Part shown: positions 41,558-44,889 of the stretch, in pieces
How the letters are laid out: every line of letters starts with the position of its first letter
Numbering within the stretch: the first letter of the stretch is position 1
From: Nitrososphaerota archaeon
GTDB taxonomy: Archaea; Thermoproteota; Nitrososphaeria; Nitrososphaerales; Nitrosopumilaceae
DNA length: 64,000 nucleotides
Direction of reading: 5' to 3'
NCBI GenBank assembly: GCA_028867755.1
Contig: JAGWFT010000001.1
Location: 1,172,149-1,236,148 of the forward strand
The notes under the pieces: model-generated
The model's database searches: none
Told to the model about the DNA's origin: nothing
Seen by the model: only the letters and a program-made list of their open reading frames with translations
Translations under genes and position numbers: made by a program

Positions 41558-41920
41558 TCACAGTTTCATGTTAAGACTTTTTATCTTCTTAATTATTGCA
41601 TTATGGTTTGAATTGGGCTCTGTTGACAATATAAGCAGACCATCATCTAAAAAGAGAGTAATCAATTTCACTTTTTCCTTGGATGTTATCATCCAGTTTG
41701 TCTTGCCTAGCGCTTCGTTAAACATGTCTTCCCATGAGGCTTTCATAGAGGCTTGATAATGTGCCATGCTGCTTAGTTCTTCATCAAGTAGTGGTGTAGC
41801 ATTTGCACTTCTAGCAAAAGAGATCAGCTTCCTATCCTTTATCCTACCTACAAAACGAACAGAGTTGTCTAGTCCTAAGATCTGTGTGCACGAATCTATC
41901 TGCTTGAAGCTTTGAGTCAA
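41558..41920 (-). CDS. Roadblock/longin-like small domain protein
   Basis: VRFVGRI...LLILSTEP alpha/beta pattern common in Nitrososphaerota. Confidence 0.6.
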   Translation of the reverse strand: MTQSFKQIDSCTQILGLDNSVRFVGRIKDRKLISFARSANATPLLDEELSSMAHYQASMKASWEDMFNEALGKTNWMITSKEKVKLITLFLDDGLLILSTEPNSNHNAIIKKIKSLNMKL

Positions 41921-42010: not shown

Positions 42011-42217
42011 TTATGTCCATAGTTTTGGATCTTTTTTCCAGATGCGAACGCCATCAACAAAAACCTGTTTTTCCTCTTCAAATACAGTATGCCACTTGCC
42101 ATCATGGGGAAACATGGTGTTCATTTCCTTGACTTTTTTGTTGGTTGGAGCAGTATTCATTAGTGCCCCCCATCGCATGTTTGGAATTTTTGGCATTATC
42201 TCATTTATGTCGCGCAT
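42011..42217 (-). CDS. Small hypothetical protein
   Basis: 68-aa Trp-rich ORF. Confidence 0.7.
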   Translation of the reverse strand: MRDINEIMPKIPNMRWGALMNTAPTNKKVKEMNTMFPHDGKWHTVFEEEKQVFVDGVRIWKKDPKLWT

Positions 42218-42365: not shown

Positions 42366-42497
42366 ATGAGAAAAGAATTCTGCCACATTTGTAAAGAGGG
42401 AGGCAAGCAGTGCGTCGATGTAGATACCAAAGAAGAAGTCTACATGATGATGTATAAAGTAAGATGTTCAAAATGTGGAGCACCTTTGGTGACCTGA
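42366..42497 (+). CDS. Zinc-ribbon microprotein (43 aa, missed by ORF track)
   Basis: Manual translation MRKEFCHICKEGG...YKVRCSKCGAPLVT with two CxxC motifs; TTTATT-type box upstream. Confidence 0.65.
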   Translation: MRKEFCHICKEGGKQCVDVDTKEEVYMMMYKVRCSKCGAPLVT

Positions 42498-42568
42498 CTC
42501 CCTCGTTATTTTGTGACTAGTTTAGAAGATTACCAGTCAATTAATCCTCTACTGTTGTAATAGATATC

Positions 42569-43144
42569 ATGACAACAATAGTAGGAATCAAGACAAGAGA
42601 TGGAGTAGTCCTAGGCTCAGATAAAAGAGCAAGCAAAGGATTTTTCATCGGATCAAAAATAGTCCAAAAGATTGCCAAGATGGATGAAACACTGGCAGTG
42701 GCAATAGCAGGCCAACTCTCTGATGCAGAATACATAATCAAAGTTGCAAAAGCAGAGAGAAGATTGATGGAGCTCAGAAGGGGATTTTCTCTAACTGTCA
42801 AAGAATCAACTAGGTTGATTGCAAATCTAGCATATTCTGGCTTGAGAAACTATCAACCATACTATGTAGAGTTGCTAGTGGCAGGAGTAGACCAGCATGG
42901 CTCTCATGTATATGCAGCCGACATGAGTGGTGCAATCACAGAAGAAGATTTTGCCTCGTCAGGTTCTGGATCTCCTATCGCATATGGAGTACTAGAAAGT
43001 CTATACAACAAGGAGATCAAAAACGAACAAGCAAAAGAAATTGCTTCGCGAGCTGTTGCTGCTGCAATGGAAAGAGATCCAGGCTCAGGTAACGGCATAG
43101 ATGTACTGGCAATACCTGCCATACCAAGGGAGGTTACAGCATAA
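42569..43144 (+). CDS. psmB: Proteasome beta subunit without propeptide
   Basis: M-TTIVGIK Ntn N-terminus, SDKRAS...KI, SGSGS, RDPGSG motifs. Confidence 0.92.
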   Translation: MTTIVGIKTRDGVVLGSDKRASKGFFIGSKIVQKIAKMDETLAVAIAGQLSDAEYIIKVAKAERRLMELRRGFSLTVKESTRLIANLAYSGLRNYQPYYVELLVAGVDQHGSHVYAADMSGAITEEDFASSGSGSPIAYGVLESLYNKEIKNEQAKEIASRAVAAAMERDPGSGNGIDVLAIPAIPREVTA

Positions 43145-43812
43145 TGTCAGACTCTGGTCCAAATTCTGGAAGGTTTCCTTTCTATGGACCTCAAGGCAGA
43201 CTTGTTCTAGTAGACAGTGCACTAGAAGCAGTAAGCCGGGGATCAACTACCATAGGAATCAAGACTCCAAAGTTTGCCATAATTTCAAGCCAGATAAAAC
43301 CAACGCATCCATTGATAGAACCATCTGAGAAGATATTCTCAATTGATTATCATGTTGGAGCTACAGGTGCTGGATACATTGGAGACATCTTGCAGCTAAT
43401 TGATGCACTAAGACTTGAAGCTCAAAAGCACAAGTTGACATATGAAAGTCCGATAGATACAGACTCGCTGGCAAAACATCTTAGCACATATCTACACAAC
43501 TACACAACATATGCCGTAAGACCACAGGCTGCCTCAATAATACTAGCTGGGGCAGACGAAACAGGCATACAGCTATACCAGATTGACCCAAGTGGCACTT
43601 TCTTTAGGGGTGCAGGCTTTGCTATAGGCCAGTCATCTGAGACAGCACTTGACGTCATAACAAGAGAATACAGTGCGGATCTTACCCAGAAACAAGCAAT
43701 TGGGCTTGCAGAAAAGGCAATAGAAAAAGCATTAGGAGAAAAACCAGTTGTTGAGACAGGAGTTGTTCTTGCAGACGAGAAGACGTTTCACAAGATTCCG
43801 TTTGGCAAGTAA
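43144..43812 (+). CDS. psmA: Divergent proteasome alpha subunit
   Basis: PQGRL, EAVSRGSTTIGIK, EKIFSID, LYQIDPSG, AIG motifs; start shares a base with the beta stop (TAATG). Confidence 0.88.
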   Translation: MSDSGPNSGRFPFYGPQGRLVLVDSALEAVSRGSTTIGIKTPKFAIISSQIKPTHPLIEPSEKIFSIDYHVGATGAGYIGDILQLIDALRLEAQKHKLTYESPIDTDSLAKHLSTYLHNYTTYAVRPQAASIILAGADETGIQLYQIDPSGTFFRGAGFAIGQSSETALDVITREYSADLTQKQAIGLAEKAIEKALGEKPVVETGVVLADEKTFHKIPFGK

Positions 43813-43947
43813 AACCTACCCACCATTTTTTATTTTTTTTAAATAGTATAATAAAAAATAACTTTTATCCCATTAACAGTAAATTAGGTTATTTAATCAT
43901 CAGAAATAGAGTTTGAAGAAACTTTGGTAATTTTCGAAAAACTCTAG

Positions 43948-44667
43948 TTAATTGTACTGGCTAAAAGAATCCGTGCCGCTTTTTCCACCAGATATGGTTT
44001 TCTGGAACACTTTGGTTATCTGCTCAAATATCCTATAGGCACTTATCATGGCCTCTGCTTTGTTTTTGTCTCCTGTCGCGTTACTTTCCACTATTGCGTA
44101 CCTTGACATTATTTTGAGGTTGACCTGAAACATGTCACCGTTAGACCATTGTAATACATAGTCTCCATCTCCATCTATCAACCCTATCCAGCGTAGATTG
44201 CCAAACCATTTTCCAACCAACTTGTTTACAATTTCTTCAACCTCAATTGTAGTAGGAATATACAATTGGAGCACTTGGGAAAACTGTAAGTGTTGTTTTG
44301 ATATTTTTCGAGACAAATTCTCAAGATCTAGCCTAGACCTCTTGACTAGAATTGATCTAAGATTCTTGCTTAATCGATAACCCGTTTGAGTTTTCTCCAC
44401 AAGATTGGAATTTTCTAATCTATGCAACGATCTAGATAGGCTTTGCTGGTGCATCCCAAGTTTTCTTGCAAGACCATTGAAGGTATATTGATTATCAGCC
44501 AAATCATTGTCTTGGTTTAGTATCGATAAAACTTTCTTGTCGTTTTCTTGAAAATCGTCAAGAGACATTCCAGAATCATCATCAATTACAATTTGTACAG
44601 TCTTGTAATCTAGCGTTATCTCTTTTTCCTTTTTATCTTCAATTTCAGGTTCAATTTTATTTTCCAT
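43948..44667 (-). CDS. Winged-helix DNA-binding domain protein
   Basis: FNGLARKLGMHQQSLSRSLHRLE HTH followed by an alpha/beta C-terminal domain. Confidence 0.8.
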   Translation of the reverse strand: MENKIEPEIEDKKEKEITLDYKTVQIVIDDDSGMSLDDFQENDKKVLSILNQDNDLADNQYTFNGLARKLGMHQQSLSRSLHRLENSNLVEKTQTGYRLSKNLRSILVKRSRLDLENLSRKISKQHLQFSQVLQLYIPTTIEVEEIVNKLVGKWFGNLRWIGLIDGDGDYVLQWSNGDMFQVNLKIMSRYAIVESNATGDKNKAEAMISAYRIFEQITKVFQKTISGGKSGTDSFSQYN

Positions 44668-44889
44668 CTTTCTTACCTCATAATGATCTCTTTACTTATT
44701 TAAGGGTAAACAGTATTACATCTCAAAAATTGTCATGCTCCCTTGTGTACATATCCAAGAACATTTCATAATCTGTTATTGTGCAATTCATTGATAAAAT
44801 GACTAGGAGTGATTAAACCTAGTCACATGTCAATTTGGCCAAAATCTATTTACAATATAACATACAGAAATGTCAGCTAACCCGCACTA

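Follow-up and report, generated by a model that had tools for sequence, protein, structure and literature searches.

A conserved second pair of proteasome genes with a linked regulator and operator in Candidatus Nitrosotalea and other Thermoproteota

Introduction

Do the two proteasome genes that follow each other in a 64,000-nucleotide stretch of archaeal DNA encode the proteasome of their host, or do they belong to a second one? The stretch, called the window below, covers positions 1,172,149 to 1,236,148 of contig JAGWFT010000001.1 (assembly GCA_028867755.1, 99.95% complete) from a member of the genus Ca. Nitrosotalea, a soil ammonia-oxidising archaeon, and positions are counted from its first letter. 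The archaeal proteasome is the textbook minimal model, with one alpha subunit, one or two beta subunits, and a gate that works via Tyr8-Asp9-Pro17-Tyr26. In Thermoplasma acidophilum, these four residues stabilize the open form of the proteasome while Lys66 anchors the C-termini of activators (review PMC6696185).

The initial annotation of the window, made without database searches, had described a translationally coupled beta-alpha operon with a remodelled gate, and had proposed a self-contained second 20S particle, possibly with a small zinc-ribbon adaptor. The reading that we favor with fair, not firm, confidence is that the locus is a conserved, separately regulated, second 20S-type proteasome cassette with non-canonical gating, for which the assembly of a particle and its gating are what we infer.

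Results

The beta-alpha pair is additional to a canonical proteasome gene set

The pair consists of the following genes:

42569-43144, plus strand: cassette beta subunit, 191 amino acids (aa), Met-Thr1 start, propeptide absent, full catalytic set, PF00227 match
43144-43812, plus strand: alpha subunit of the cassette, 222 aa, pocket Lys retained, gate region remodelled to RFPFYGPQGRL..VDSA

Both proteins match the proteasome family PF00227 (MEROPS T1) far above its gathering cut-off of 22.4 bits (beta, E 4.6e-47 and 160.5 bits; alpha, E 1.4e-42 and 146 bits). They keep the canonical fold and share 30-40% identity with canonical subunits. In a residue-by-residue alignment, the mature Thr1 of the Archaeoglobus fulgidus beta subunit (1J2Q) corresponds to residue 2 of the cassette beta, which begins with MTTIVGIK and carries Asp17, Lys33, Ser129 (in a GSGS segment), Asp166, and Ser169 (in RDxGSG). 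The start at M-T-T without a propeptide and the intact catalytic motifs noted in the initial annotation are thus borne out; judged by its sequence, the cassette beta has a complete set of catalytic residues and is predicted to be catalytically competent. The one-base overlap that had been described between the two genes is also read directly in the DNA, the beta stop and the alpha start sharing a single base in gcaTAATGtca.

Profile searches set the pair apart from the archaeal equivalogs, HslV, and the bacterial proteasome. Against TIGR03634, the PsmB equivalog, the cassette beta scored 202.5 bits, below the cut-off of 224, and the active canonical beta of the same genome scored 224.7. The HslV profile gave 20.9 bits against a cut-off of 157.75, the bacterial beta profile TIGR03690 gave 72.8 bits against 191.9, and the bacterial alpha profile gave no match. 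Because TIGR03690 stays below its cut-off and the bacterial alpha profile is unmatched, the affinity of the sequences is archaeal, not bacterial.

A profile search of the genome detected five PF00227 genes: a canonical alpha, two canonical betas, and the cassette pair. The three canonical genes sit elsewhere on the same contig, so that the pair does not represent the only proteasome genes of the organism, a check that the initial annotation had called for. One canonical beta is active in type, with a propeptide ending in HG directly before TTTVG. The other (L003:1456-2073; G000:C24, about 848000) carries Ala in place of the catalytic Thr1 (PG-ATAVG) and is probably an inactive structural beta like Saci_0662 of Sulfolobus. 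Since a canonical alpha, a propeptide-bearing beta, and an Ala1 beta are all present elsewhere, the cassette pair is an extra set. The G-A-T at the Thr1 place was seen in all orthologues of the Ala1 beta from Nitrososphaerales, Caldiarchaeum, Bathyarchaeia, and Methanosuratincola. In other Nitrososphaerales genomes, frames of 260-280 aa gave faint further PF00227 matches of 25-43 bits (L089 and L090 in G036 and G025; L085 in G030), which may be distant proteasome-like homologues; none of them was found in the genome of the window.

The gate region of the cassette alpha is rebuilt

Aligned with the canonical alpha of its own genome, the cassette alpha has Tyr8, Asp9, and Tyr26 replaced, while Arg10, Pro17, Gly19, and the lysine of EKIF are retained. 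This agrees with the altered N-terminus first reported for it, in which the Tyr-Asp pair and the later Tyr were gone and the Pro and the pocket Lys kept. Its alignment to archaeal alphas begins at residue 12. When the genome was searched at E<=1 with PF10584 (Proteasome_A_N), the profile of the N-terminal signature YDR..T.FSP.GRL.QVEYA, the canonical alpha was the sole match and the cassette alpha gave none. The equivalog profiles separate the two proteins in the same way: the cassette alpha scored 157.1 bits with TIGR03633 (cut-off 287.35) and 166.8 bits with NF003075 (cut-off 219), and the canonical alpha 288.8 and 317.1 bits, respectively. The AlphaFold2 (AF2) model of the cassette alpha (predicted local distance difference test, pLDDT, 89) superimposes on T. 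acidophilum 1PMA_A and A. fulgidus 1J2P_A with template modelling (TM) scores of 0.88-0.89 at 1.4-1.6 A; it has a helix at residues 21-32 (the H0 helix) and no Thr1.

The new motif is itself conserved. In Nitrosotalea alphas, RFPFYGPQGRL.LVDSALEAV is invariant across 120 cluster representatives, residues 2-9 being variable. The pocket Lys66 is invariant in an alignment of 29 sequences. The motif RF..FYGP.GR...VD[SAR]A is common to the cassette alphas of Caldiarchaeum and Nitrososphaerales. Because it is shared with Caldiarchaeum and invariant in the 120 representatives, the change must be old and the new motif constrained. The cassette alphas of Methanomethylicia keep Pro17 and Tyr26 (VEYA) and vary at YDR/YER/YGR. 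Taken together, the sequences point to a non-canonical gating of the cassette alpha ring: since the pocket Lys is kept and Tyr8, Asp9, and Tyr26 are replaced, docking of activators may persist, but the usual opening mechanism should not be able to operate as described.

Which activator could dock? The gating had been framed in terms of PAN, and this part of the initial annotation has to be given up, as no PAN gene was found in the genome: TIGR01242 matched best to AAA domains that belong to four Cdc48 paralogs, and Cdc48 becomes the candidate partner. The absence of PAN from Thaumarchaeota has been published (PMC3493965). The four Cdc48 paralogs (L031-L034, at four loci on C24) end in PYYR, SHFR, AFYG, and AMTL. 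Two Cdc48 types have tails like the hydrophobic-tyrosine-any residue (HbYX) motif and one has none; those ending in PYYR and FYG occur widely across the order.

The pair is conserved as a unit and evolves under purifying selection

We surveyed 300 genomes of the class with the cassette alpha as a query. Orthologues with 63-89% identity were found in 55 of them: 24 of the 25 genomes from this genus, 2 of the 3 from a sister genus, and 25/43 and 3/4 of those from two other families within the order. No orthologue was found in two large genera of the same family (0/73 and 0/20) or in the other orders sampled. The beta gene is present in 54 of the 55 carriers, always adjoining alpha, and the lone exception lies at a contig end. 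Two further families have copies with 53-54% identity. The pair is also found in Ca. Caldiarchaeum subterraneum (regulator, see below, CSUB_C1146; alpha BAJ51000) and throughout Methanomethylicia (Methanomethylicus, Methanosuratincola). Complete genomes of Methanosuratincola and Caldiarchaeum have five PF00227 genes each, the canonical three and the pair; two Bathyarchaeia genomes have three PF00227 genes only. The tallies of this work include the unpublished genomes G010 (L011), G011 (L016), G017 (L008), and G240, and every conclusion holds with the remaining genomes; L008, L011, and L016 are rows in the tallies of synteny, promoters, operators, and zinc-ribbon substitution rates, and L011 and L016 are rows in the regulator alignment A4.

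In trees of all paralogues, the cassette alphas form one clade (support 100/99) and the cassette betas another (100/99). The topologies of the two clades match, with Methanomethylicia on one side and Caldiarchaeum plus Nitrososphaerales on the other. Both clades group with the beta and alpha of a single operon, L094 (97/78 and 97/89), and not with the canonical Thermoproteota subunits, which rules out a recent duplication of the canonical genes; the pair would be an old paralogue or an old acquisition. The L094 operon (L094:1349-3086), from a metagenome-assembled archaeon, contains a beta with a propeptide, an alpha, and a second alpha. The general statement that archaeal alpha and beta genes are unlinked, made in the initial annotation, holds as a usual arrangement with exceptions, because of cases such as this operon.

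Within the genus, the ratio of non-synonymous to synonymous substitution rates (dN/dS) is about 0.05 for both alpha and beta, an approximate value because dS is near saturation. The cassette genes are under strong purifying selection. Being adjacent and conserved in 54 of the 55 carriers, with such a dN/dS, the pair is not a chance feature. The idea of a second proteasome gene set is thus upheld by the canonical genes elsewhere, the strict co-occurrence of alpha and beta, their evolution as a unit, and the conservation of the rebuilt gate motif itself.

These data also bear on a different explanation, in which cassette subunits enter the canonical rings, as alternative subunits do in Haloferax (alpha1/alpha2) or the immunoproteasome, and yield hybrids with altered activity or gating. 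The canonical fold and the level of identity to canonical subunits in both proteins would allow such an exchange, and two different betas in one particle are already known in Thermoproteota (10.1101/774273). However, strict co-occurrence, adjacency, translational coupling, and matching trees fit a mutually dependent pair, and for an exchange a beta alone would suffice. We therefore regard subunit exchange as unlikely, yet as the strongest competitor of a separate second particle.

A winged-helix regulator and a palindromic operator accompany the pair

The surroundings of the pair contain the following elements:

42513-42539, plus strand: operator, conserved inverted repeat GTGACTAG-N11-CCAGTCA (GTGAC-N18-GTC), adjoining the beta promoter
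42539-42545, plus strand: TATA-like AATTAAT box, 23 nucleotides (nt) before the ATG, putative promoter element
43826-43840, plus strand: T-rich tract (T6-A-T8), 14 nt past the alpha stop, a likely archaeal transcription terminator
43948-44667, minus strand: winged-helix regulator gene, winged helix-turn-helix (wHTH) plus a beta-alpha-beta4-alpha C-terminal domain, with linked homologues across lineages
44800-44826, minus strand: second operator copy, lying 133 nt before the regulator gene, with TTTTAT and short open reading frames (ORFs) after it

Residues 55-99 of the regulator are a wHTH of the MarR_2/HTH_5 (MarR/ArsR) type. Its C-terminal half matched no Pfam family and, in the AF2 model (pLDDT 75), folds as beta-alpha-beta4-alpha. 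Features of a protein atlas gave no usable match for this domain, and the atlas fold search gave only uncharacterised archaeal MarR-like clusters. In each of the lineages that we examined, the regulator has a homologue linked to the pair. This homologue is immediately upstream and in the same orientation in Caldiarchaeum, at all Methanomethylicia loci, and in four families of Nitrososphaerales; in Nitrosotalea and in one other family it is convergent or lies a few kb off. An assignment of the gene to the neighboring copper module is contradicted by its synteny with the pair. In Methanomethylicia, the cassette regulator always has a divergent gene of the metallo-beta-lactamase fold upstream of it (L054:2679-3671, with equivalents in L041-L057).

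The operator is conserved at 14 of 14 aligned Nitrosotalea loci, irrespective of the presence of the zinc-ribbon gene described below. Its core, GTGAC-N18-GTC, lies 29-43 nt 5' of the beta start at 34 of 38 loci from three classes, as compared with 0.3% of shuffled sequences. The 27-nt form has just two occurrences genome-wide, one before beta and the other before the regulator gene (44800-44826). The sequence AGTCAATTAAT at the TATA-like position is invariant in Nitrosotalea, and other lineages have AATAAT or AACAAATA in its place. As the box is 23 nt from the ATG, a leaderless or near-leaderless beta-alpha mRNA would fit. A wider regulon was looked for with strict and relaxed operator patterns across the genome and was discarded, since only the two cassette sites were found at promoters; the relaxed pattern gave 13 matches, against 37 for the same pattern reversed as a control, and no match lay ahead of a Cdc48 or chaperone gene. 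On this sequence evidence, the regulator gene and the operator are a real third component of the cassette, a point that the initial annotation had missed.

The regulator-operator unit precedes other genes in Bathyarchaeia

Regulator homologues in Bathyarchaeia occur without the beta-alpha pair. In one family, at 8 of 11 loci, the operator GTGAC-N18/19-AGTCAACAAATA is followed by a protease with Trypsin_2 and PDZ domains (HtrA-like); these loci are L128:3980-5627, L142-L145, and L147-L149. In another family (L127, L150, L151, L152), an ORF of 53-67 aa with a proline-rich tail of repeated NP/PxP lies downstream of the regulator homologue, and the operator before this small ORF was seen in L151. 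Because these homologues occur without the pair, the regulator-operator unit would be older than its link to the proteasome, and because a protease appears to be controlled in two of the three contexts, we propose that it is a protein-quality-control switch.

The zinc-ribbon neighbor is a real gene but not a member of the cassette

A further gene lies just upstream of the pair:

42366-42497, plus strand: 43-aa zinc-ribbon gene, CxxC...C...CxxC, a genuine neighbor and not a conserved part of the cassette

Its five Cys are conserved and its dN/dS is 0.02-0.08, so the initial annotation was right in calling it a gene; the adaptor role suggested there does not stand. In its favor as a dedicated adaptor of a self-contained particle with an altered response to PAN, the gene precedes the pair by 71 nt, on the same strand, both here and in six close relatives. 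With this query, matches came from 18 of 22 other Nitrosotalea genomes and from 0 of 16 genomes of other genera, and the gene was not found in the other cassette-bearing families; in other cassette-bearing Nitrosotalea it is far from the cassette (132 kb in G008, 68 kb in G012, 92 kb in G013). The cassette beta promoter sits between it and beta, and the genome has no PAN to respond to. Distribution, synteny, and the intervening promoter led us to reject it as a cassette member, and an adaptor function is highly improbable.

Two small minus-strand genes without a Pfam match, at 41558-41920 (120 aa) and 42011-42217 (68 aa), are conserved beside the cassette in Nitrosotalea genomes with 75-90% identity.

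Discussion

The observations can be joined in one proposed mechanism. The winged-helix regulator, probably as a dimer, would bind the palindromic GTGAC-N18-GTC, the right half of which abuts the TATA-like box of the presumably leaderless beta-alpha transcript. It would most likely act as a repressor, because the operator appears to cover the position of the transcription factor B recognition element (BRE), and could be released when its C-terminal domain senses a signal, for which proteotoxic stress is plausible. After transcription, translation of the two genes would be coupled through TAATG. For the beta, loss of the initiator Met would be enough to expose Thr1, so that autocatalytic processing should not be needed. 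Beta and alpha would most likely assemble into a separate alpha7-beta7-beta7-alpha7 particle carrying 14 active sites; in contrast, the canonical particle would mix the active beta with the Ala1 beta. As the Lys pocket for HbYX tails is kept, docking could still be open to those Cdc48 paralogs that have YYR or FYG at their ends, and with the Tyr8-Asp9...Tyr26 open-gate cluster replaced, gating would have to work differently.

Several points weigh against a separately regulated second proteasome. The second particle is deduced here from its genes, and mixing of cassette and canonical subunits may also be compatible with the data. The direction of the regulation and the inducing signal are guesses. 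No dedicated unfoldase is evident, since no Cdc48 paralog co-varies with the cassette: a dedicated paralog was rejected because none of the types (PYYR, FYG, non-HbYX, sorted by tree) tracks its presence, G030 having no cassette but both HbYX types, and G035 and G025 having the cassette with just two Cdc48 genes. The C-terminal domain of the regulator has no solved relative, as a Foldseek search of the PDB returned nothing at E<=0.001 and only weak rows for IclR-type and phosphomannomutase C-domains. No operator copy was found in front of the regulator gene at the other Nitrosotalea loci with enough sequence (L011, L024), nor in front of the regulator genes of other lineages; we thus rejected autoregulation as a conserved feature, and autoregulation via the 44800-44826 copy would be lineage-specific. 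Finally, the comparison in Bathyarchaeia covers few related genomes.

The second operator copy has one more feature. Between 44716 and 44826 (minus strand), the ATG of a 17-codon ORF comes 31 nt after it, the spacing also seen at the beta promoter, and this ORF may be a leader or upstream ORF of the regulator transcript; this arrangement was not seen in other Nitrosotalea.

Beyond the preferred reading of a second, separately regulated proteasome, we put forward a broader and distinctly more tentative scenario, namely that the locus derives from an ancient Thermoproteota switch for emergency proteolysis whose cargo has been swapped, a second 20S in Nitrososphaerales, Caldiarchaeum, and Methanomethylicia and an HtrA-like protease in Bathyarchaeia, and that the loss of the otherwise universal Tyr8-Asp9-Tyr26 cluster from the alpha ring of the Nitrososphaeria branch gave either a proteasome for damaged proteins that is constitutively accessible and independent of ATPases, or a new mode of gating. 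A recently acquired or decaying pair without current function, such as a horizontally transferred remnant, would explain the patchy distribution with no carrier in two large genera of the same family and the grouping with the operon of an unrelated metagenome-assembled archaeon instead of canonical Thermoproteota subunits, but is scarcely credible given the low dN/dS, the intact catalytic residues, the conserved operator, the ordinary G+C around the locus, the flanking genes conserved within the genus, and a cassette phylogeny that follows lineage structure.

If the proposal of a second proteasome is true, an entire second core under a transcriptional switch of its own would mean that specialised proteasomes, so far a eukaryotic theme, exist in archaea. 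A natural and conserved alpha subunit that has the activator pocket, but in which the Tyr8-Asp9-Pro17-Tyr26 cluster is replaced, is a ready-made test of the necessity of this cluster. The short and well-defined regulator-operator pair offers an experimental handle on an archaeal protein-quality-control regulon, a subject poorly known beyond Phr in Thermococcales. Among the lineages concerned are the ecologically important soil ammonia oxidisers and methyl-reducing methanogens. We found no paper describing the cassette in the literature on the proteasomes of Thaumarchaeota, Nitrosotalea, or Nitrososphaera, on proteasome homologues, or on the Caldiarchaeum CSUB loci; PMC8665760 is a survey of distant proteasome homologues only.

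How does the cassette compare with known systems? With canonical archaeal PsmA/PsmB (1PMA, 1J2Q/6HE5), it shares the fold, the family, the full beta catalytic set, an alpha TM of 0.88-0.89, and the pocket Lys. It differs from them in being a coupled beta-then-alpha unit with a dedicated regulator and operator and no propeptide, in an alpha without Tyr8/Asp9/Tyr26 and PF10584, in the scores of both proteins below the NCBIfam equivalog cut-offs, and in being additional to a canonical set. The 20S of Sulfolobus acidocaldarius (6Z46) consists of the alpha Saci_0613, the inactive beta Saci_0662, and the catalytic beta Saci_0909 (10.1101/774273). This three-subunit make-up is that of the canonical set of the present genome (alpha, Thr1 beta with propeptide, Ala1 beta). 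Unlike S. acidocaldarius, the genome has two more subunits, the fourth and fifth, which come from the cassette and fall in separate clades. To our knowledge, no such additional alpha-beta pair has been described for Sulfolobus.

The regulation recalls Phr, the winged-helix heat-shock repressor of Pyrococcus, which controls an AAA+ ATPase, hsp20, and itself. Both cases feature an archaeal wHTH protein and, at the promoter of genes for protein quality control, a palindromic site; this is an analogy only: no sequence or fold relation to Phr was detected for the cassette regulator, which has a beta-alpha-beta4-alpha C-terminal domain. The beta-then-alpha gene order is that of the actinobacterial prcB-prcA operons, of which Rhodococcus erythropolis has two and hence, like the present genome, two complete sets. 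Unlike these, the cassette is archaeal in sequence and has neither a long propeptide nor a Pup/Mpa context. Finally, in Haloferax volcanii (alpha1/alpha2), Pyrococcus (beta1/beta2), and the vertebrate immunoproteasome, alternative subunits, some of them inducible, give rise to a second form of the protease. These cases are exchanges of single subunits in which the gate motif is kept, whereas the cassette comprises a complete alpha and beta pair together with its own regulator.

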